Counted from the stretch's first letter, positions 6,625 to 31,633 are shown. The stretch is DNA of 64,000 nt from Beijerinckiaceae bacterium (GCA_947453205.1 CANGFT010000002.1:55884-119883); one strand, 5' to 3'. The notes: generated by a model not told the origin, from the sequence alone. Program-made: numbers and translations.

Positions 6625-6781
6625 TACCGGGAGATCGCCAGGTCTGCTGAAACAGCCTCGCCTGACCGCGCCTGCCCAGCCCCAAATCATGCGCCCCCAC
6701 TTCCCCTGTGGCTGACGCCATCTTGCGAATTGCGGCGGGGCGCTGAGGGTCTATATTCGGCCCCGAAAAACGGAGCCTCCC

Positions 6782-7735
6782 ATGACCTCGAAACTCGATC
6801 AGCTCAGGACCATGACCACCGTGGTCGCCGACACCGGGGACATGGAGGCGATCCGCGCTTTCAAGCCAACGGACTGCACGACCAATCCGACCCTGATCCT
6901 CAAGGCCGCGCAGATGGAGGCCTACAAGGACATCGTGGACGAGGCCATTCGCTGGGGCCGCGAACACAAGGCCGATGTGGGGCGGGTGACCGACCGGCTC
7001 GCCGTCAGCTTCGGCGCGGAGCTTGCGCGCATCGTGCCCGGCCGCGTCTCGACCGAGGTCGATGCGGACCTCTCCTTCGACACCGAAGGCTCGCTCGCCA
7101 AGGCCCGCGCGCTGATCGCCGACTATGCCTCGCGCGGCATCGGACGCGAGCGCATCCTCATCAAGCTCGCCGCCACCTGGGAGGGCGTTCAGACCGCCCG
7201 CATCCTTCAGAAGGAGGGCGTCGACTGCAACATGACCCTCATCTTCAACCTCGCCCAGGCCGTCGCCTGCGCCGATGCGGGCGCCTATCTCATCTCCCCC
7301 TTCGTGGGGCGCATCTATGACTGGTTCGTCAAGAACGAGGGCAAGGCCTATACGCCGGAGACCGACCCCGGCGTGCTCTCGGTCCGCAACATCTACGCCT
7401 ATTACAAGGCCCATGGGATCGACACCGTGGTGATGGGCGCCTCCTTCCGAAACATCGGCCAGATCGAGGCTCTGGCGGGTTGCGACCGGCTGACCATCTC
7501 GCCGCAGCTGCTTGACGAACTCGCCCGCAGCCAGGACGGTCTGGCCCGCCGCCTCGACCCCGCGCAGGCCAGAGCCAGCGCCCCCGCGCGCCTGACGCTG
7601 GACGAGAAAGCCTTCCGCTTCCTGCTCAACGAAGACGCCATGGCCACCGAGAAGCTGGCCGAGGGCATCCGCATCTTCGCCCGCGACCTCACCCATCTGC
7701 GCGGACTCGTGTCGCAGAAGATGAGCGCCGCCTGA
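6782..7735 (+). CDS. tal: Transaldolase (long TalB type)
   Basis: [42 protein letters not shown] and VMGASFRN. Confidence 0.96.
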
Positions 7736-7927
7736 GCGAAAAGGCGCCTTGGGGCCACGCAGGGGCCCCACTTGCGCCGTCAAGCCAGCCTATTGGACGC
7801 GCAGAGCGGGGCCGGATGCGGCTGCGCCGGGAAAACGCATTCAATGGAGTGAGCTAGCGCTTATCTGTTTCATTTTGGGACAAAGACGCTCTAGTTACAG
7901 GCAGACTGATTCGACGGAACGAAGGCG

Positions 7928-8704
7928 ATGGCCCCCATCAACTCAAAGCGCTGGCTCGACCAAATCTGCGCCGCGGCGCTCGCAATGCTTGTCTCCATGG
8001 GCGCCGGGGCGCTTCAGGCCCAGACCACCGCCCCGCAGGGTGAGGAAGAAGAGGTCCGCTGGACCCTGCCCCCGCCAACCCACCTGCTGACTACGCCGCC
8101 GCAGCCCGCCGCCGCCGCGAGCCCAGCCGAAGCGCCGCAACCCTTCGGCGGCCCGCCCGTGATGCGCGCCCAGACGCAAGCCGCGCCGCAGGAGGCAGCG
8201 CCCGAAGCCGCCTCCATGCTCGCGCCGTCCGTCGCGCCGCCGCCGCCTTTGCTGGCCCCGGCCGCGACGCCCTATTTTGCGCCCCAACCAGCCCCCGTCG
8301 CGGCGACGCAGCCCGCCCCGGCGCCCGAGCCTGCGCCCGTCCAGGCGGCGGCCGAGCCCAAAAAGGGGAAAAAATCGGCAGCCAAAACCACGACGCCTGC
8401 GGCCAAATCTGCGGAGACCAAAGCCGTCGCCGCCAAGCCCGTCGCCGCAAAGCCTGCAGCCGGCGCCAAGCCTGTGGCCAACACGCCCGCAGCCGCGCCG
8501 AAACCAGCGGTCGCCGCCAAGCCTGCGGCGGTCAAGACAGCCAAGACCGCAAAACCTGCGGCCACGACACGCCCCCCCGAACCCGTGCCGCCGCCGCCCT
8601 CCATGACGCAGAAAGAGCCGGAGGACAGCCGCATCCCCGTCATTTCAACGGTCATGGATGGCGTGAGCACGGTCGGCCGCAAGATCGGCGGCCTCTTCGA
8701 CTAG
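7928..8704 (+). CDS. Hypothetical exported Pro/Ala/Lys-rich low-complexity protein
   Basis: Signal-like N-terminus, AAKP/KPAA repeats, amphipathic C-terminus. Confidence 0.6.
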   Translation: MAPINSKRWLDQICAAALAMLVSMGAGALQAQTTAPQGEEEEVRWTLPPPTHLLTTPPQPAAAASPAEAPQPFGGPPVMRAQTQAAPQEAAPEAASMLAPSVAPPPPLLAPAATPYFAPQPAPVAATQPAPAPEPAPVQAAAEPKKGKKSAAKTTTPAAKSAETKAVAAKPVAAKPAAGAKPVANTPAAAPKPAVAAKPAAVKTAKTAKPAATTRPPEPVPPPPSMTQKEPEDSRIPVISTVMDGVSTVGRKIGGLFD

Positions 8705-8756
8705 CGTCCGCCCCGTTCAAAGGCCCGCAATCCCGGCGATCAGACGGGAAGGCGAG

Positions 8757-23852: not shown

Positions 23853-24560
23853 TCAGCGCGCGCCCGCAGCCTCCCGACCGGATTGCACGATGGCTGCGCG
23901 ACGCTGGAGATAGAGATTGCGGGTGAAGGCATATTTATCGAGGCTCGATGTGTCGATCAGATTGGCGTTGTCGACATTATCGGCCTTGATCTGGACGAAT
24001 TCGAGGCCGATCAGGCCATAAGACCAGGCGTCGACCATATAGGTGCGCGGGTCGGAGGCGACGCGCGCCGCACGGCCGATGGTGTCGCGGGCGGACGAGG
24101 GGCCCATGAGCGGCAGCACCAGATAGAAGCCCGGCTCCGCGCCCCAGACGCCGAGCGTCTGGCCGAAGTCGCCCTCGCCCTTCTGAAGGTTCTGCGTCGA
24201 GGCGACGTCGATGAGGCCAGCGATGCCGACGGTCGAATTGATGAGGACGCGCGAGAAATCGGTCATGGCGTCCCTGCCGCGCCCCTGCAGCAGGTGATTG
24301 GCGCCGATGAAGACGTCGTCGAGATTGCCGAAGACATTGGCCACGCCCATGCGCACGGGTTTCGGCAGCACGGTGTTCCAGATCGTCGCGATGGGCTTCA
24401 GGGCCACCGTGTCGAGCGCCTCGTTCAGGGCGAAAAAGCCCCTGTTGACCGGCTCAAGCGGGTCATTATGCGGCGCTGGGCTCTGGGCGAGCGCGCAGGA
24501 AAGGCTGGAGCCAGCGAAGAAAACCGCCGCGATGACCGCAGAACGAACGGATCGAATCAT
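23853..24560 (-). CDS. mlaA: MlaA/VacJ outer membrane lipid asymmetry protein
   Basis: DPLEPVNRGFFALN, RVLINSTVGIAGLID, DFGQTLGVWG and YLVLPLMGPSSARD. Confidence 0.92.
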   Translation of the reverse strand: MIRSVRSAVIAAVFFAGSSLSCALAQSPAPHNDPLEPVNRGFFALNEALDTVALKPIATIWNTVLPKPVRMGVANVFGNLDDVFIGANHLLQGRGRDAMTDFSRVLINSTVGIAGLIDVASTQNLQKGEGDFGQTLGVWGAEPGFYLVLPLMGPSSARDTIGRAARVASDPRTYMVDAWSYGLIGLEFVQIKADNVDNANLIDTSSLDKYAFTRNLYLQRRAAIVQSGREAAGAR

Positions 24561-25030
24561 TTCTTGTCTCCAGAGCTTTCAGCCGCCTTGTTATACAGAA
24601 ACTGCCCGATGAGCTTCTCAAGAACCATGGCGGACTGGGTTTTGATAAATCGTTCACCATCCTTAAGATATAATGAATCCCCGCCCGCGTCTAAGCTTAA
24701 GTACTGCTCTCCCAGGAGACCCGAGGTCACGATGGCGGCGATCGTATCGGTGGAGAAACGAAATTCCGGGCGGATGCGCAGCTGCGCCACCGCCTCATAG
24801 GTGTCCCGGTCGAGATGGATGGATTCGACCCGCCCGACCACGACGCCCGCGCTCTTGACCGGCGCCCGCACGCGAAGGCCCCCGATATTGTCGAACCGGG
24901 CTTCGAGCCGATAGCCCTCGGCGCTGTCGAAGCTGACGAGATTGCCGACTTTCAGCGCCATGAACACCAGCGCGACGACGCCCAGCGCCACGAAGGCGCC
25001 GACGGCGACGTTGGTTTTGGAGCGGTTCAT
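24557..25030 (-). CDS. mlaD: MCE protein MlaD
   Basis: VGAFVALG, ARFDNIGGLRVRAPVKSAGVVVGRV, TSGLLGEQY and TQSAMVLEKLIGQFL. Confidence 0.95.
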   Translation of the reverse strand: MNRSKTNVAVGAFVALGVVALVFMALKVGNLVSFDSAEGYRLEARFDNIGGLRVRAPVKSAGVVVGRVESIHLDRDTYEAVAQLRIRPEFRFSTDTIAAIVTSGLLGEQYLSLDAGGDSLYLKDGERFIKTQSAMVLEKLIGQFLYNKAAESSGDKK

Positions 25031-25815
25031 CAGTTCAACCCCCTAAACATCAGGACGGTCAGGATAAAATCGAGCGTCAGGACGCTCAAGGAAGAGATGA
25101 CCACCGTGCGGGTGGTGGCGCTGGACACGCCCTCGGCGGTCGGCGCGGCATGGTAGCCCTCGAAGACCGAGATCAGCCCCACGGCCAAGCCGAAGACCAG
25201 CGCCTTGAAGAGGCCATTGAGCACATCAAGCCGGAAATCGACGCTGGCGCGCATCTGCGACCAGAAGGCCCCGGCGTCGATGCCGATCAGCTCGACGCCC
25301 ACGAGATAGGCGCCGATGACGCCCGCGCTCGAGAAGATCACCGCCAGAATCGGCAGAGACACGAGCGCGCCCATGAAGCGGGGCACGACGACCCGCGAGA
25401 TCGGATCGACCGCCATCATGTCCATGGCGGCGAGCTGCTCGGTGGCGCGCATGAGGCCGATCTCCGCCGTGACGGCGGAACCGGCGCGGCCCGCAAAGAG
25501 CAGGGCCGTCACCACCGGCCCAAGCTCGCGCACCAGGGAAAGCGCGACGAGGGAGCCCAGCGCATCGGCCGAGCCGAACCGCTGGAGCACCTCATAGCCC
25601 TGCACCGCCAGCACCATGCCCACAAACAGGCCGGAGACGAGGATGATGGCGAGGGAGCGTACGCCGGAGAAATGGATCTCGCGCACCAGCAGGGCGCCCC
25701 GCTTCAGCCCGCGCCAGGTCCGGGCGAAGACGGCGCCGAAGAACAGGGTGGCGAGGCCGAGCCGCGCCAGCGCGCCAAGGGTGACGGCGCCGAGCCGGTC
25801 GAGCAGGTCAAGCAT
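25030..25815 (-). CDS. mlaE: MlaE permease
   Basis: VRELGPVVTALLFAGRAGSA.TAEIGLMRATEQL and GVSSATTRTVV. Confidence 0.95.
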   Translation of the reverse strand: MLDLLDRLGAVTLGALARLGLATLFFGAVFARTWRGLKRGALLVREIHFSGVRSLAIILVSGLFVGMVLAVQGYEVLQRFGSADALGSLVALSLVRELGPVVTALLFAGRAGSAVTAEIGLMRATEQLAAMDMMAVDPISRVVVPRFMGALVSLPILAVIFSSAGVIGAYLVGVELIGIDAGAFWSQMRASVDFRLDVLNGLFKALVFGLAVGLISVFEGYHAAPTAEGVSSATTRTVVISSLSVLTLDFILTVLMFRGLN

Positions 25816-26644
25816 CGGCGCCCCCGCTCCCGCTCGCCCCGCCCAGCAACTGCCGGCCATAGGCGGGGGCCGGATAATGGAAGGGCACCGGCCCGTCGGG
25901 CAGGCCATCGGCGAACTGGCGGATGAAGATGTCGTCGCTGACGCGCACCTCGGCGGGAGTCATGTCCCGGACAATGCGCCCATCCGAGACCAGCACGATG
26001 CGGTCGGCGATGCGCAGGGTCTCGTTCACATCATGGGTGACGATGAGGGAGGTCATGCCGAAGGCGTCGTTGAGCCGCCGGATCAGGCGCCCGATGATGC
26101 CCGCCGAAATCGGATCAAGCCCCGTGAAGGGCTCGTCATAGAGCATCAGCATGGGGTCGAGCGCGATGGCGCGGGCCAAAGCCACCCGTCGCGCCATGCC
26201 GCCGGAGAGCTGGGAGGGCATGGACTGCGCCGCCCCCCGCAGGCCCACGGCCTCAAGCTTCATCAGCACGAGGTCGCGAATCACGGGCTCGGGCAGGTTG
26301 GTCTGCTCACGATAGGGAAAGGCGATGTTGTCGAAGACCGAAAGGTCGGTGAAGAGCGCCCCGAACTGGAACAACATGCCCATGCGCCGCCGCAGGGCGT
26401 AAAGGCCCGGCCCATTGAGGCGGCCGACATCCTGTCCATCCACATGGACGCTGCCCGCCCAGGCGACGTTGCGCCCGCCCAGAAGGCCCAGAAGCGACGT
26501 CTTGCCATTGCCCGACCCGCCCATGACCGCAAGGATCTGGCCGCGCGGCACGGATAGATCGAGCCCGTCAAGAACCACGCGCTCGCCATAACCGAATCGA
26601 ACGTTCTTCAACTCGATGAGGGGCGCGGCAACGGGGTGAGACAA
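25808..26644 (-). CDS. mlaF: MlaF ATPase
   Basis: GGSGNGKTS Walker A, GMLFQFGALFTDL, LSGGMARRVALARAIALDP and YDEPFTGLDP; TTG start. Confidence 0.93.
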   Translation of the reverse strand: MSHPVAAPLIELKNVRFGYGERVVLDGLDLSVPRGQILAVMGGSGNGKTSLLGLLGGRNVAWAGSVHVDGQDVGRLNGPGLYALRRRMGMLFQFGALFTDLSVFDNIAFPYREQTNLPEPVIRDLVLMKLEAVGLRGAAQSMPSQLSGGMARRVALARAIALDPMLMLYDEPFTGLDPISAGIIGRLIRRLNDAFGMTSLIVTHDVNETLRIADRIVLVSDGRIVRDMTPAEVRVSDDIFIRQFADGLPDGPVPFHYPAPAYGRQLLGGASGSGGADA

Positions 26645-26749: not shown

Positions 26750-27175
26750 TCAGCGGATCGGCTTGCCCCGCACATCCTGCGCGCGCTCGATCCTGATGAG
26801 CACGCCCACGCCCGTATCCGCCCCGTCGTGGGTCGATTCGCGCTCGTTCAGCCGCGCGAAGATGGCGTCGTGGATCGGACCGCTCTCATGCAGCTCCGCG
26901 ACGCCATAAAAGCGCAGGATGCCCGATTCCAGCACCTTGTCGCGCTGCGCCTGCATGTTGCTGTAGACGACGATGACGCGGTTGTCGTGGCGCAGATTGG
27001 CCAGCGCCTGCTTCTTCGAGCGCTCCCAATAGGCGAGATGGTCGTCATCGAACAGCATCATGCTGCCCTTGGGGCTGATGTTGGGGCCATCCTCGCCGGA
27101 GGTGCCGAGCAGGCAGACATAGCCGTCCTCCCAGGCGTTGGTGATGAGGCGGCGGATGGTTTCGCTGAAAGCCAT
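26750..27175 (-). CDS. Pyridoxamine 5'-phosphate oxidase-like flavin-binding split-barrel protein
   Basis: LGTSGEDGPNISPKGS and ALANLRHDNRV. Confidence 0.75.
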   Translation of the reverse strand: MAFSETIRRLITNAWEDGYVCLLGTSGEDGPNISPKGSMMLFDDDHLAYWERSKKQALANLRHDNRVIVVYSNMQAQRDKVLESGILRFYGVAELHESGPIHDAIFARLNERESTHDGADTGVGVLIRIERAQDVRGKPIR

Positions 27176-27199
27176 GGGATGTTCCTCTGGATCGTCCGG

Positions 27200-27439
27200 T
27201 CAGACGGGCTCGTCATAGACGCTGTAGCGTCGGGGATTGGTGATGTCGTGGCTGAGCGAAATGCAGTGGGCCGGGCAATCGTCCTCGCAGAGATAGCAAA
27301 CCTGACAATCCGCGCCGTAAGCCACTTTGGCCTTGCCGCTTTGCGCATCCATGCGGATCACATCGGCGGGGCAGGCCAGCACGCAGAGGCCGCAGCCGGT
27401 GCAGGCGAGGGGGTCGATGGAGATCGCATGACCGCCCAT
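27200..27439 (-). CDS. 2x[4Fe-4S] ferredoxin (AprB-like)
   Basis: CTGCGLCVLACP and CQVCYLCEDDCP. Confidence 0.88.
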   Translation of the reverse strand: MGGHAISIDPLACTGCGLCVLACPADVIRMDAQSGKAKVAYGADCQVCYLCEDDCPAHCISLSHDITNPRRYSVYDEPV

Positions 27440-27440
27440 G

Positions 27441-29201
27441 TCACGCCCCCTTCGCCGGTTGATGCTGCGCGCTCATGATCGCGCCGATGGGGCCAAGCCC
27501 GCTCTGCTCGCCCTGCGGCTTGAACCGCACCCCCTCCTGCGGGAAGCCCTGCTTGTCGAAGGCGAATCCCTGGCCGGTCGACGTCACGCCATGGGAGCAG
27601 AACCAGGACGGATCCGTCATGGGAAAATCCTCGCGATAGAACTGTTCGCGGCTCTCCTTCCGGTCGAGGCCGGAGCGGTAGACGACTTCCGCATTCAGCG
27701 AGACGTTGCGCGCCTCGTGCCATTTGACGAGATCATGCAGATCGCCCGCCGCCGTCTCATCCAGCGCGTCCGCCACGTCGCGCGCGCCCTTCAGGAGTTC
27801 GGTGAGGCGGTTCTCGCTGAGGATCATGCTCTTGACCACGCTGCTCTCGAGCCTTGCGAGATCATCGTGCAGGCGGTCCGCGCTGCGTAAGCCCCTCGCC
27901 CGGCTCAGGGGGGCGAAGGCCTGCTCCTGCAGCATGGCGATGAGGCCCTGCGGCGCTGATTCGCGCGCAGAGCTGCGGCTTTCAAGCGCCGCCGTCTCCC
28001 CGGCGTGCCAACCCGAAACCTTGGCGAAGGCGGTCGGCGAGCCTGCGCTGGCGTGGGTGCCGGTGGCGTCGTTCTTGGCCGCCGATCCCGCCGCCAGAAG
28101 GCCCGGCAGATTGGTGCGCGCCCCAAGGTCGATCTGCAATCCGCTGCGCCCGCTCGCCCAGAGGCCCCATGTGGGCTCGATCTGGAGCGGGTTCTTGCGG
28201 GGGTCGGGCACATGTTCGGACAGAAGGATCGAGCCCCCGCGATGCAGCTTGGCGAGATCGGTCCAGTAGCTCGCGTCCACATGGCGCAGATCGACGAAGA
28301 CCGGCCCGCGCCCCTCGACGATCTCCTTGGCGAAGGCCGCCACCACATTGGAGAGCTCGCCGCGCTCGAGGCGCACGGGATCGTGCTGCTCCATGAAGCG
28401 CTCGCCAAGGGCGTTGATGAGCCGCGCCCCATGGGCGACCGCCACATTGTAGCTGGGGAAGTCGAACTTCTTCATCAGCACATTGAAGGTGCCGCCGAAG
28501 GTGAACTCCATGTCCACGAGCCGCCCGCCCGCACGGAAGGCCATGGCCACGCCGTCGCCGGTGTCATTGTCGACGCGGTGCGTTCCCTTCATCGCGATCA
28601 TGCCGGTGGCGACGATGGTGCGCTTGGCGTTGATGAAGATGAACTGGCCCGTATAGATGTTGAAGCCCACGGCGCCGATGATCCCGGCGTTGCTGGGCCA
28701 TTGGCCGTCGGCGGTCACAAGCTCGGTGACATGCACGCGGTCGAGAATGCGCACGCCCCGCGCCGTGATGCGCCTGCGCAGCTCGATCATCGCCGCCTTC
28801 GGCTGATATTGCATGCCCCGCACATCAATCATGCCGCGGCTGGCGAAGCGGCGGATGGAGCCGTCTTCCGCGCGAGAGATCGGCACGCCCCAGGCGACAT
28901 AATCCTTCACCCGCGCTTTTTGTCCCTCCAGCAGCTGATAGGTCCAGCGCTGGTCGCACATATAGTCGCCGCGCTCGATGAACTCGCGCGCCCACAGGTC
29001 GATGTCATCCGTGTCGAGCGGGCAGGTGGTGATGCCGCCCGACATGGTTGAGGCGCCGCTCTTGCTGACATAGGCCTTGTCGACCAGCGTGACGCTGGCG
29101 CCAAGATCAGCGGCGCGCAAGGACGCCCAGGTCCCGGCGAAGCCGCCGCCGATGACCAGCACATCCGTCTGCAGAACCTCGATGCTCCCGCGCATGGTCA
29201 T
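27441..29201 (-). CDS. FAD-dependent oxidoreductase of the AprA/Sdh/Frd flavoprotein family
   Basis: TDVLVIGGGFAG, TGDGVAMAFRAG...DMEF, TNLPGLLAAG and RKESR. Confidence 0.82.
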   Translation of the reverse strand: MTMRGSIEVLQTDVLVIGGGFAGTWASLRAADLGASVTLVDKAYVSKSGASTMSGGITTCPLDTDDIDLWAREFIERGDYMCDQRWTYQLLEGQKARVKDYVAWGVPISRAEDGSIRRFASRGMIDVRGMQYQPKAAMIELRRRITARGVRILDRVHVTELVTADGQWPSNAGIIGAVGFNIYTGQFIFINAKRTIVATGMIAMKGTHRVDNDTGDGVAMAFRAGGRLVDMEFTFGGTFNVLMKKFDFPSYNVAVAHGARLINALGERFMEQHDPVRLERGELSNVVAAFAKEIVEGRGPVFVDLRHVDASYWTDLAKLHRGGSILLSEHVPDPRKNPLQIEPTWGLWASGRSGLQIDLGARTNLPGLLAAGSAAKNDATGTHASAGSPTAFAKVSGWHAGETAALESRSSARESAPQGLIAMLQEQAFAPLSRARGLRSADRLHDDLARLESSVVKSMILSENRLTELLKGARDVADALDETAAGDLHDLVKWHEARNVSLNAEVVYRSGLDRKESREQFYREDFPMTDPSWFCSHGVTSTGQGFAFDKQGFPQEGVRFKPQGEQSGLGPIGAIMSAQHQPAKGA

Positions 29202-29215
29202 TTTCGCTTCCAAAT

Positions 29216-30199
29216 TCAGGGGACCGCCACGCCGGCGGCTTCGACCATCTTGGCCCAATTGGCGATTTCAGATTTGAAATAGGCCGCGGACTCAGGCTGG
29301 CTGCGATTGGCGACGATGAGGCCCATGGAGTCGATCTTCGCCTTCACATCCGGGTCTTTCAACGCTGCGTTGATCTCGGCGTTGAGCTTCGTCAGCACAC
29401 CCTCGGGCGTGCCCTCGGGCGCGAAGAAGCCGGCCCATGAGCTTGCGAGGAAGCCGGGAAATCCGAGCTCCGCGAAGGTGGGAACGTCGGGAATGGCGGG
29501 GTCGCGCTCTGCGCTGGCGACAGCGAGGCCGAGGATCTCCTTGTTCACCATGGCGGGAATGGTCGCGGCGGTCGCCGTGCTCGACAACACGCTCACGTCG
29601 CCCGCCAGAAGGCCGAGCTTGGCGGGGGCGCCGCCGGGAAAGGGAATATGCCGCACATTCGCCTTGGCGAGGACCTTGAAGAAATATTCCGCCGCCAGAT
29701 GCGAGCCGCTGCCGATTCCGGGGGTGCCGAGGAACACGGTCTCGCCCGCCTTGGCCTGCGCGAGAAGGTCGCCAAGCGACTTGATGTTCGACTTCGGATT
29801 CGAGGCGAAGGACTCGGGCGCAGAGACCGGCAGCGCCACGGGCGTCAGGCCCTTAGCCGAGAAGCCCTTCGTCTTGTAGAGCGTGTCGTTGATGGCCAGC
29901 GACGTGGTGGTGACGAGGATCGTGTAGCCGTCAGGCGCGGCCCCGGCGACGTGGCGCGCCGCGATGTTGCCGCCCGCGCCATCCATGTTCTGCATGACGA
30001 CCTGCTGGCCCAGCTTGTCGCCGAGTTTGGCGCCGATGATGCGCGCGACGCTGTCGGCGAAACCGCCGGAGGCGAAGCCGATGGTCAGCGAAATGCGCTT
30101 GGTCGGCCAGTTCTCCTGCGCAAGGGCGGGCGCCTGCGCGCAGCCGAAGGCGGCGAAGCTTAGGCAGATGGCGCCAAGAAGGTTCGATTTCATGCTCAT
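29216..30199 (-). CDS. Bug/TctC substrate-binding protein
   Basis: WPTKRISLTIGFASGGFADSVAR, GAGGNIA and PDVPTFAELG. Confidence 0.9.
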   Translation of the reverse strand: MSMKSNLLGAICLSFAAFGCAQAPALAQENWPTKRISLTIGFASGGFADSVARIIGAKLGDKLGQQVVMQNMDGAGGNIAARHVAGAAPDGYTILVTTTSLAINDTLYKTKGFSAKGLTPVALPVSAPESFASNPKSNIKSLGDLLAQAKAGETVFLGTPGIGSGSHLAAEYFFKVLAKANVRHIPFPGGAPAKLGLLAGDVSVLSSTATAATIPAMVNKEILGLAVASAERDPAIPDVPTFAELGFPGFLASSWAGFFAPEGTPEGVLTKLNAEINAALKDPDVKAKIDSMGLIVANRSQPESAAYFKSEIANWAKMVEAAGVAVP

Positions 30200-30228
30200 G
30201 CTCCACTCCCCATGATTGCGTTCTATTT

Positions 30229-31020
30229 TTATTCGGCGACGACCCTGTTGCGCAGCACGCCGATGCCCGAAATTTCGATCTCGAGGTCATCTCCGGGCTT
30301 CATGTTGAGCGGCTTGTCATCGGTGCCAAGCCAGATCACGTCGCCGGGCGACATGGTGTTGTATTTCGATATTTCGGCGATGACGGCGGCCGCATCGAAC
30401 TGCATGGCGCCTGTGGGAAAGGAATGGACCGTCACGCCGTTGAGCCGCACATCGGTGCGCATGCCCGAGGGATTCACCCCCTGCACGATCCACGGCCCCA
30501 TGGGCTTGAAGGTGTCGCAGTTCTTGGCGCGGATGTTGGTGGGATCCTTGACCTGCCAGTCACGCTCGCTGACGTCATTGCCGATGGTCCAGCCAAAAAT
30601 ATATTGCGCCGCCTCCGCATGGGAGACGCGGCGCGGCACAGTCTTGCCGATGACCGCGACAAGCTCCGCCTCATATTGGAATTGCTCGCCGGAATCGGCG
30701 GGCTTCACGATGTCCTCGCCATGGGCGATGAGGGCGCTGTTGGCGCGGTAGCCGACGCGCGGCCTGTCGTAGAAGATCGGCTTGCGGCCCATGGCCTCGG
30801 CCATCTTCACGACATGGTCGTGATAGTTGGAGCCGATGGCGTAGAAGGTGGGCGGCACGACGGGAACGAGCAGGCGCGCCTGCGCCAGAGGCGTGACCTG
30901 CCCGGTCTTTTTGAAATCTGCGAAGGGCGAGCCTTCGACAAGGGCGACATCATCGCCTTCCACAAGGCCGAAGCTTGGGCCCTGCGGCGTCTCCACGCGG
31001 CACCATTTCACGATTCCCAT
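30229..31020 (-). CDS. Fumarylacetoacetate hydrolase family protein
   Basis: IGSNYHDH, YEAELVAVIGK, GWTIGNDVSERDWQ, KNCDTFKPMGP and PGDVIWLGT. Confidence 0.9.
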   Translation of the reverse strand: MGIVKWCRVETPQGPSFGLVEGDDVALVEGSPFADFKKTGQVTPLAQARLLVPVVPPTFYAIGSNYHDHVVKMAEAMGRKPIFYDRPRVGYRANSALIAHGEDIVKPADSGEQFQYEAELVAVIGKTVPRRVSHAEAAQYIFGWTIGNDVSERDWQVKDPTNIRAKNCDTFKPMGPWIVQGVNPSGMRTDVRLNGVTVHSFPTGAMQFDAAAVIAEISKYNTMSPGDVIWLGTDDKPLNMKPGDDLEIEISGIGVLRNRVVAE

Positions 31021-31045
31021 CGGGCGTTCCTCGCTATTTTTTTGA

Positions 31046-31633
31046 TCACTTCGGCGCCCGGCGGATCAGGCGCTCGTCATAAACGGTCGTGTCCTGCCCC
31101 CGCACGGGATTGTCGATGGCTTCCTCAAGGCTTTTGGCGCCCTTCCATTCGGAGGGCGGACGCGTGATCCCGTCGCCGCCGACCTGATCGAGGCCCCAGT
31201 AGATCTCCAGCATATGGCCGTCGGGATCGGCGAATTCGACGGCGATCTGCACGCCCGCGCGCCGGCGCCCCTCGACGATGATCGGCACATTGTTGCGCTC
31301 GAGATGCTCGCGGGCCCGGAACACTTCATCAAGCGTGGAGACGGCGAAGGCCATGTGGTGCAGCTCGATGTTGGGCGAGCTGTCGGGCAGGGAGCCGATC
31401 AGCGCGACGCCGTGATGATCCGCGTTGAAGCGCATGAAGACCATGCCGCCGGGCACCATGTCGTCGCCGTAGATGTCGGAGATCTTGAAGCCCAGCACAT
31501 GGGTGTAGAACCGGACGGAGGCCTCGAGGTCGCGGCAATTCAGCACGACATGGCCGATCTTGGTGATGGCGAAAGGCGCGCGGCCGGCCTGCGCGATCGC
31601 CCGAAGGCGGTCATGAAGTCCTGCGTCGCTCAT
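31046..31633 (-). CDS. VOC family protein (extradiol dioxygenase-like)
   Basis: KIGHVVL, DHHGVAL, LHHMAF and DPDGHMLEIY. Confidence 0.85.
   Translation of the reverse strand: MSDAGLHDRLRAIAQAGRAPFAITKIGHVVLNCRDLEASVRFYTHVLGFKISDIYGDDMVPGGMVFMRFNADHHGVALIGSLPDSSPNIELHHMAFAVSTLDEVFRAREHLERNNVPIIVEGRRRAGVQIAVEFADPDGHMLEIYWGLDQVGGDGITRPPSEWKGAKSLEEAIDNPVRGQDTTVYDERLIRRAPK

Follow-up and report, generated by a model that had tools for sequence, protein, structure and literature searches.

A flavoprotein–ferredoxin pair of AprAB-like architecture in an organic-acid gene context of a Beijerinckiaceae bacterium

Introduction

Enzymes of the SdhA/FrdA/NadB/AprA superfamily have in common a chemistry of hydride transfer to the N5 atom of the flavin. 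Two described systems stand closest to the gene pair considered here, namely the AprAB-type PAPS reductase (PAPS, 3′-phosphoadenosine 5′-phosphosulfate) of Methanothermococcus thermolithotrophicus (8a8o; PMC10322725) and an 'AprAB-like' assimilatory complex with sulfur-assimilation neighbours, noted with DiSCo (PMC8477390). A full-text literature search surfaced only these two reports and no characterised member of the family described below. The pair lies in a 64,000-nucleotide stretch of DNA from a Beijerinckiaceae bacterium (GCA_947453205.1, CANGFT010000002.1:55884-119883), hereafter the window, in which the gene of a flavin adenine dinucleotide (FAD) protein is followed directly by that of a small ferredoxin within an operon of six genes.

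The reading favoured here, with a probability of roughly 0.55, is that the flavoprotein and the ferredoxin form a soluble cytoplasmic oxidoreductase containing FAD and two [4Fe–4S] clusters, which acts on a carboxylate delivered by a Bug-type binding protein and passes electrons via the clusters to or from a partner encoded outside the conserved unit, while a hydrolase or isomerase (here accompanied by a VOC protein) acts upstream or downstream. The oxidoreductase most likely combines the AprAB architecture with a substrate pocket of its own. This reading draws on a confidently predicted four-domain fold with its cofactor motifs (GxGxxG, an invariant Gly and eight invariant Cys), on the conserved pairing, the phylogenetic position on the AprA side and the family-specific pocket. 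It draws further on the organic-acid context, i.e., Bug or NMT1 binding proteins, MarR, IclR or LysR regulators, and FAH or α/β hydrolases, on relatives located beside TctABC, UbiD/UbiX and LarA, and on the orphan-Bug pattern of the genome.

Family models and fold of the flavoprotein

Both superfamily Pfam domains were found in the flavoprotein, FAD_binding_2 with 108.2 bits (cut-off 20.4) and Succ_DH_flav_C with 32.7 bits (cut-off 20.8). In an NCBIfam profile search the protein fell below every curated cut-off: the highest score was that of TfrA (185 against a cut-off of 718), followed by PRK08275 (164 against 587), sdhA_frdA (TIGR01812, 157 against 567), nadB (TIGR00551, 126.5 against 452.75) and aprA (TIGR02061, 63.3 against 641.75), the aprA model aligning over its N-terminal 193 positions only. 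Among solved structures, the top sequence match was the alpha subunit of the PAPS reductase (8a8o_A, E 7e-30), after which came Sdh, Frd and NadB chains; AprA of A. fulgidus was matched over the N-terminal 230 residues only.

An AlphaFold2 model built from 64 family sequences (pLDDT 87.2, pTM 0.90) gave the four-domain SdhA/FrdA/AprA fold. Foldseek comparison of this model yielded TM-scores of 0.80–0.82 for FrdA/SdhA, 0.81/0.85 for the PAPS reductase and 0.79/0.72 for AprA, with a sequence identity of about 21–22% to the latter two. Because scores of 0.79–0.85 are nearly equal across FrdA/SdhA, PAPS reductase and AprA, the fold identifies the superfamily and not the subfamily, and the Foldseek comparison was rejected as a subfamily classifier.

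Cofactor and active-site residues

Residues were compared in an alignment of the family with E. coli FrdA, SdhA and NadB (NC_000913) and proteobacterial AprA sequences; the A. fulgidus AprA and PAPS reductase sequences and their numbering were read from HMMER alignments, and the AprA numbering was checked on the 2fja alignment. For A. fulgidus AprA, we take N74, Y95, E141, Q145, W234, R265 and H398 as the residues of the active site and of substrate binding, and for E. coli FrdA, H44 for covalent FAD attachment and H232, R287, H355 and R390 for dicarboxylate binding and catalysis (literature numbering). The string SKSGASTMSGG, for which the first-pass annotation had pointed out the lack of the covalent-FAD histidine, was indeed located at residues 46–56, where it aligns with RSHTVAAEGG of FrdA. 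Gly49 occupies the position of FrdA H44 and is present in every one of the 58 family members compared, and the GxGxxG motif is invariant across the family.

The positions that serve substrate binding in FrdA are occupied by other residues, which are invariant or nearly so in the family in the case of H232, R287, H355 and R390. FrdA H232, equivalent to AprA R265, corresponds to K244 (Lys in 53 of the 58 members), by which only the basic character of the AprA residue is kept, and FrdA T244-E245 corresponds to A256-H257. The catalytic Arg of Frd and Sdh (FrdA R287, AprA R317) is replaced by a nearly invariant leucine, L283, in a gap-free part of the alignment, with the invariant R277 and R280 lying 3–6 residues upstream. 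G346 stands at the site of FrdA H355, with the nearly invariant W345 and W348 on either side, and A384 at that of R390, beside the invariant H383 and within a loop, GTHASAG, that is absent from AprA and PAPS reductase. On the AprA side, N74, Y95, E141, Q145 and W234 are replaced by T59, E73, A120, M124 and H208, respectively, and the stretch aligned with H398 (residues 343–352) holds no histidine. The substrate ligands of NadB, a set of His and Arg residues common with Frd, are likewise not kept. The family thus has conserved residues of its own, namely K244, H257, W345, W348 and H383, and comparison with 109 more distant relatives showed its pocket positions to be family-specific and its scaffold positions to be common to the wider radiation. 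Since both the Frd and the AprA residues are replaced, the flavoprotein cannot be filed as an adenosine 5′-phosphosulfate (APS) reductase, a fumarate reductase or an aspartate oxidase.

These results bear on the proposal that the protein is a divergent paralogue of fumarate reductase, succinate dehydrogenase or L-aspartate oxidase, with the usual C4 dicarboxylate or amino acid as its substrate. The FrdA/SdhA TM-scores, the TfrA and Sdh/Frd models at the head of the NCBIfam list, and public labels of homologues as 'succinate dehydrogenase/fumarate reductase flavoprotein subunit' agree with it. However, the TfrA, sdhA_frdA and nadB scores are all far under their cut-offs, the covalent His is gone, and the four FrdA residues have given way to conserved ones. 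The partner, moreover, is a plain dicluster ferredoxin instead of a three-cluster SdhB/FrdB, an anchor is lacking, and the genome encodes its canonical SdhA on contig 22. Such a paralogue is considered extremely unlikely, the least probable of the explanations weighed here.

Beyond the region of Frd/AprA homology, the flavoprotein carries a C-terminal extension of about 45 residues (residues ~540–586; window 27441–27580) with a conserved motif, LSPIAAIM, which is predicted by AlphaFold2 to be a short helix. This extension may stand in for the AprB tail at the subunit interface.

Phylogenetic position

A quick IQ-TREE analysis (LG+G4, 65 sequences, 583 columns, short search), in which TfrA and other characterised branches were absent, contained a branch with 100% SH-aLRT support that parts Frd, Sdh and NadB, the genome's own SdhA included, from AprA, PAPS reductase and a large unnamed radiation. 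AprA and PAPS reductase formed one clade (100% support). The window flavoprotein fell within the radiation, in a separate clade of 13 sequences with 100% support and a stem length of 0.53. The phylogenetic comparison with AprA, SdhA and NadB, suggested at first annotation, therefore places the family on the AprA side of the Frd/Sdh/NadB split and outside bona fide AprA. None of 10 sampled representatives of the radiation reached any curated family cut-off.

An exhaustive search of 1.84 billion representatives returned 5720 relatives with E ≤ 1e-3, of which 403 (50%-identity clusters) had E ≤ 1e-30. Only about 8 of the 50%-identity clusters were closer than 43% identity to the window flavoprotein.

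The ferredoxin and its pairing with the flavoprotein

The ferredoxin contains two CxxCxxCxxxCP motifs, CTGCGLCVLACP and CQVCYLCEDDCP, and all eight Cys are invariant in 13 aligned partners, distant ones among them. By sequence it is of a generic dicluster type: the beta subunit of PAPS reductase was one match of many (E 3e-7), and the identity to the ferredoxin domain of a proteobacterial AprB was 34%. An AprB-type subunit combines a ferredoxin domain bearing the Trp of a CWxC motif with a β-sheet segment and a long C-terminal tail. In the window ferredoxin this Trp position is occupied by Q, or by H or S in relatives, and the C-terminal AprB extension is absent; the ferredoxin family keeps a C-terminal end of its own, NPRRxS(I/V)YD. 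With Gly49, the two Cys motifs and the adjacent genes, the AprAB architecture first proposed for the pair, i.e., a non-covalent flavoprotein beside a dicluster ferredoxin, is borne out.

In 20 of 20 genome loci with downstream DNA, the ferredoxin gene directly follows the FAD gene, and the same pairing was seen in further loci checked, including relatives at 31–36% identity. Two of the ferredoxin open reading frames (ORFs), at L027:9783-10025 and L054:1715-1954, are present in the DNA and uncalled by the public annotation, so automated neighbourhood surveys undercount the pairing. Among 59 metagenomic relatives at 25–59% identity, 33 had a co-oriented small ORF with two dicluster motifs at most 600 bp away, and only 1 carried the covalent-His motif.

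It could be supposed that the two genes are functionally independent, with the ferredoxin serving other enzymes and the flavoprotein being a direct O2 oxidase. The generic sequence of the ferredoxin would allow this, and NadB-type members of the superfamily are able to use O2. However, the adjacency, often with overlapping or nearly abutting genes, is kept over 25–93% identity and several phyla of contexts, which would be surprising for genes that have no physical or functional link, and the ferredoxin has its family-conserved C-terminal tail. Independence of the two genes is therefore considered extremely unlikely.

Some contigs carry two tandem or nearby FAD–ferredoxin pairs (L028:4783-10085; L010:188-2175 and 6735-8721). 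Each pair of L028 has its own NMT1-type binding protein, suggesting duplication and substrate divergence within one catabolic island. In three long-read contigs (L019, L020 and L021, from MFD metagenome-assembled genomes (MAGs); match 7001-8750), the flavoprotein, Bug and ferredoxin are matched in several frames, for which assembly error from long reads is a more likely cause than pseudogenes.

Gene neighborhood and distribution

The six-gene set of the window is not the conserved unit, since the VOC and FAH genes stand beside the pair only in 9 near-clade loci (about 66% identity or more), and the PNPOx gene follows the ferredoxin gene in only three genomes, i.e., the window's own, a 92%-identical Beijerinckiaceae MAG (L009) and L001/G594. 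The six genes were consequently rejected as a fixed unit, and four of them are not conserved partners. The context highlighted by the first-pass annotation is thus conserved in part: the adjacency of FAD and ferredoxin genes is kept in all related loci with enough DNA, but the full operon is not. What is conserved is a binding protein with the FAD protein and the ferredoxin, usually with some hydrolase; the binding protein is of the Bug type or belongs to an NMT1-type ABC transporter, and the hydrolase is of the FAH or α/β type. The L009 locus is syntenic with the window across the helicase gene, all six operon genes and MlaFED.

At 53–64% identity three layouts were found. In Pigmentiphaga, a MarR gene adjoins TctC-FAD-Fdx-α/β hydrolase-NHL, where Fdx is the ferredoxin; in Ramlibacter, a LysR gene adjoins DoxX-FAD-Fdx-TctC-esterase; and in the third, an IclR gene adjoins FAD-Fdx with an NMT1-type ABC transporter and α/β or DLH-like hydrolases, sometimes tandem-duplicated. 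These hydrolases are nearest to the C–C hydrolases and enol-lactonases HsaD, BphD and PcaD, though far under cut-off. The DoxX-family membrane protein gene was seen at a single locus, in Ramlibacter sp. WS9 (L025:7581-7994), where it ends 7 bp before the FAD gene; its product could connect the pair to the membrane or to quinone. Relatives at 32–35% identity adjoin UbiX/UbiD prenyl-FMN decarboxylases, LarA and TctCBA (L056:1648-8579, L054:37-4904), which hints that the wider radiation handles aromatic or unsaturated carboxylic acids.

A sulfur function was weighed against this context, either as an assimilatory 'AprAB-like' APS/PAPS reductase or as a desulfonating enzyme that would attack an imported sulfonate by way of an FAD-N5-sulfite adduct. 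The alpha subunit of PAPS reductase as top solved relative, the AprAB architecture, the basic K244 at AprA R265, and the NMT1/NitT-TauT-type ABC binding proteins beside more distant family members speak for it. A Pfam tally of 123 neighbors of far metagenomic relatives, too mixed to give a single functional theme for the whole radiation, contained sulfate/citrate symporters, TauE, ATP-sulfurylase, DctM, TctC and amidohydrolases; the ATP-sulfurylase and TauE genes fit the assimilatory 'AprAB-like' complexes with their sulfur-assimilation neighbors (PMC8477390) and the PAPS reductase (PMC10322725). However, neither the gene maps nor tblastn revealed sat, cysC, TauE, sulfite reductase or sulfite dehydrogenase in about 29 loci of the family itself. 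The identity to PAPS reductase and AprA is low, the aprA score is about a tenth of its cut-off, five of the AprA residues are replaced and H398 has no His counterpart, the family lies outside the AprA/PAPS reductase clade, and the ferredoxin lacks the AprB Trp and tail. A sulfur enzyme is accordingly very unlikely. The first-pass annotation had proposed a new soluble oxidoreductase for an aromatic, sulfonated or ring-cleavage substrate; its oxidoreductase of AprAB-like architecture holds, but its substrate guesses find no support, and least of all the sulfonate, as the sulfate and AMP ligands of AprA are replaced and no sulfur gene was seen beside members of the family proper.

Another explanation is a C–N (amine/imine) dehydrogenase with NadB-like chemistry on an amino- or N-heterocyclic carboxylate, with the neighbouring hydrolase then cleaving the resulting imine or enamine. 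NadB is itself a superfamily member, a PNPOx-like protein is encoded in the operon, and α/β, DLH-like, Amidohydro_2 and M24/creatinase-like hydrolases recur nearby together with class II aldolase-like genes. Against this, no conserved aminotransferase or deaminase gene was found beside the family, the residues by which NadB binds its substrate are not kept, and the VOC and HpaG-like FAH proteins point rather to carbocyclic ring-cleavage chemistry. This explanation is judged unlikely.

The family is rare. Among 301 genomes drawn evenly from the order, it was found in the window's own genome only (0 of 300 others), and of 25 genomes of the genus three carry it (78% and 72% identity, with differing flanks). 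The named hosts are Xanthobacteraceae, Beijerinckiaceae and other Hyphomicrobiales MAGs, Pigmentiphaga and Ramlibacter; cultivable strains with related loci include Pigmentiphaga daeguensis JCM 14330 (L016), Pigmentiphaga humi (L023) and Ramlibacter sp. WS9 (L025). Such patchiness is typical of mobile, accessory modules for catabolism.

Operon layout and accessory proteins

The gene order, common orientation and 1-bp gap between the FAD and ferredoxin genes described at first annotation were reproduced by ORF listing, translation and Pfam search (Table 1). The gaps between the six genes, in operon order, are 25, 29, 14, 1 and 24 bp; the FAD gene ends with TGA at 27441–27443 and the ferredoxin ATG starts at 27439, leaving one base between them. 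As also stated initially, sat, qmo, aprM and sdhCD-like genes are missing from the operon by Pfam search of the six products, and by the same search no membrane anchor or SdhC/D-type family occurs among them. A scan for promoters and terminators gave nothing exceeding shuffled expectation. Upstream lies a divergent DEAD-box helicase gene and downstream, after 105 bp, the MlaFED operon.

Table 1. The six genes of the operon (window 26750–31633), in operon order
Product	Position	Strand	Length and profile matches
One-domain VOC (glyoxalase/extradiol-dioxygenase-like) metalloenzyme	31046-31633	-	195 aa; Pfam Glyoxalase 6e-23
FAH-family enzyme, HpaG/HpcE-like isomerase/decarboxylase/hydrolase	30229-31020	-	263 aa; FAA_hydrolase 7e-55 and Rv2993c-like_N
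Bug/TctC periplasmic carboxylate-binding protein, with signal peptide	29216-30199	-	327 aa; Pfam TctC 2e-48
Non-covalent FAD flavoprotein, SdhA/FrdA/NadB/AprA superfamily; proposed alpha subunit	27441-29201	-	586 aa; FAD_binding_2 7e-31 and Succ_DH_flav_C
2x[4Fe-4S] ferredoxin; proposed beta (electron-transfer) subunit	27200-27439	-	79 aa; Pfam Fer4 families
PNPOx-like split-barrel flavin (or haem) binding protein; accessory	26750-27175	-	141 aa; PNPOx_N 1.6e-10

The VOC protein, whose length is counted from an ATG backed by homologues, can be aligned with type I extradiol dioxygenases (3b59; 1han, BphC) over their C-terminal catalytic domain. Judging by its aligned HVVL, HH, HHMAF and LEIY motifs, a metal may be bound by a His/His/Glu triad. 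In our comparison with the BphC motifs, the conserved Tyr is apparently Phe and the His of GRH apparently Arg, and the protein scored far below the cut-off of all NCBIfam dioxygenase models. The FAH protein has its best structural matches in HpaG (1gtt, 1e-45) and CHM isomerase (4pfz) and is under all NCBIfam cut-offs. The PNPOx-like protein matches 2htd (COG3576) and HupZ and is a possible redox partner of the pair.

The Bug protein matches PF03401 with 165.6 bits (cut-off 27) over profile positions 1–273 of 274, and its gene is an orphan with no tctAB adjoining. Structures that bind adipate, aspartate, nicotinate/citrate or terephthalate resemble the protein to nearly the same degree, and a ligand guess from sequence was rejected on that account. 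With about 110 TctC/Bug matches over the Pfam cut-off and 7 TctA matches elsewhere in the genome, the Bug protein of the operon belongs to a large set of orphan receptors. Bug genes of this orphan kind tend to lie in the operon that uses their ligand. Further examples in the genome are at C2:112281-113102 and C2:73458-74237; the expansion is of the Bordetella/Cupriavidus style, yet the host is alphaproteobacterial (Hyphomicrobiales).

The downstream genes MlaD, MlaE and MlaF occupy window positions 24557–26644. A close homologue of MlaF (85–88% identity) was found in only 1 of 6 congeneric genomes, where it occurs twice, and the Mla operon is thus itself accessory in the genus.

Proposed working and significance

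In the working proposed here, an organic, probably cyclic, aromatic or unsaturated carboxylate would be caught in the periplasm by the orphan Bug protein and imported via one of the genome's TctAB units. The flavoprotein would then oxidise or reduce it by two electrons at FAD N5, in a reaction that by analogy with the superfamily may be an α,β C–C (or C–N) dehydrogenation or its reverse, and the two [4Fe–4S] clusters would pass single electrons between FAD and an external partner. This partner is presumably encoded outside the conserved unit, the PNPOx-like flavoprotein being a candidate in the window's clade. The product or precursor would be handled by a hydrolase or isomerase, here the HpaG-like FAH protein with the one-domain extradiol-type VOC protein, and in other clades probably an HsaD/BphD/PcaD-like α/β hydrolase in their place.

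Several points weigh against this working. The residues that classically serve the superfamily as acid/base and carboxylate ligands are replaced (H232 by K244, R287 by L283, H355 by G346, R390 by A384), and with the Frd-type acid/base Arg and carboxylate ligands gone, a fumarate-reductase-like working is itself uncertain; the alignment around R277–L283 and 343–352 is ambiguous without a superposed structure. A conserved gene for an electron acceptor or donor was not found near the pair. The accessory genes vary by clade, so its substrate may vary from host to host, and the NMT1/NitT-TauT transporters at some loci are also compatible with sulfonates.

A bolder extension, tentative and rather doubtful, is that the pair offers a first look at a large radiation of soluble enzymes of AprAB architecture, over half of whose examined relatives carry an adjoining ferredoxin gene. 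These enzymes would have been recruited from sulfur-nucleotide chemistry to organic-acid catabolism in aerobic soil Proteobacteria and would catalyse a reaction new to the superfamily via K244, H257, W345/W348 and H383, for example a desaturation, aromatisation or reductive change of a cyclic or aromatic carboxylate that primes C–C hydrolysis.

The pair is an uncharacterised and mis-annotated variant within a known enzyme superfamily, for which the public labels 'succinate dehydrogenase/fumarate reductase flavoprotein' and 'FAD-binding protein' are almost certainly wrong. If the favoured reading is true, one of the best-studied flavoenzyme folds would gain a new substrate class, the AprAB subunit design would be in use outside sulfur metabolism, and soil Hyphomicrobiales and Burkholderiales would offer a handle on a route of carboxylate breakdown, with the Bug protein from the operon itself as a ready tool for fishing out the substrate. 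Metagenome annotation would gain as well, because genes of this kind may pass for respiratory complex II or sulfur-cycle markers.

Comparison with known systems

With FrdA/SdhA, TfrA and NadB, the window flavoprotein has in common the four-domain fold (to FrdA/SdhA at the TM-scores given above), and TfrA is its top NCBIfam model. However, it lacks the covalent His, has other residues in place of the dicarboxylate ligands and the catalytic Arg, and is separated from Frd, Sdh and NadB in the tree with 100% support. The partner subunits differ also: FrdB and SdhB contain 2Fe–2S, 4Fe–4S and 3Fe–4S clusters, and neither these nor the TfrB partner resemble the plain 79-residue dicluster ferredoxin of the window, whose pair is, by Pfam, soluble and anchor-free in contrast to the Sdh/Frd complexes.

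AprAB (1jnr/2fja; TIGR02061) likewise consists of a flavoprotein and a 2x[4Fe–4S] subunit. AprA and the window flavoprotein both have Gly where the covalent His would stand, and they have in common a DLH(D/E)L helix motif, an RKE(S/T)R motif and a basic residue at R265. In contrast to AprA, the window protein scores only 63 bits against 641.75 in the aprA model and does not keep N74, Y95, E141, Q145, W234 or H398; its ferredoxin has neither the Trp nor the tail of AprB, and sat, qmo and aprM are absent from the locus. No aprA over cut-off was found in the window's genome, whereas one was present in 43 of 301 genomes sampled from the phylum.

The PAPS reductase 8a8o is set apart by an identity of about 22%, by a clade with AprA that excludes the window protein, by catalytic and nucleotide-binding residues that the latter does not keep, and by the absence of the Sdh-like loop GTHASAG. 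The context of the window pair consists of organic-acid genes in aerobic Proteobacteria and not of sat, cysC or sulfite reductase. The PAPS reductase is nevertheless the top solved sequence match and gives the highest target-normalised TM-score (0.85); it lies on the same side of the Frd/Sdh/NadB split, and, like the window pair, it combines a non-covalent FAD alpha subunit of about 570 residues with a short, ferredoxin-only beta subunit free of the long AprB tail.

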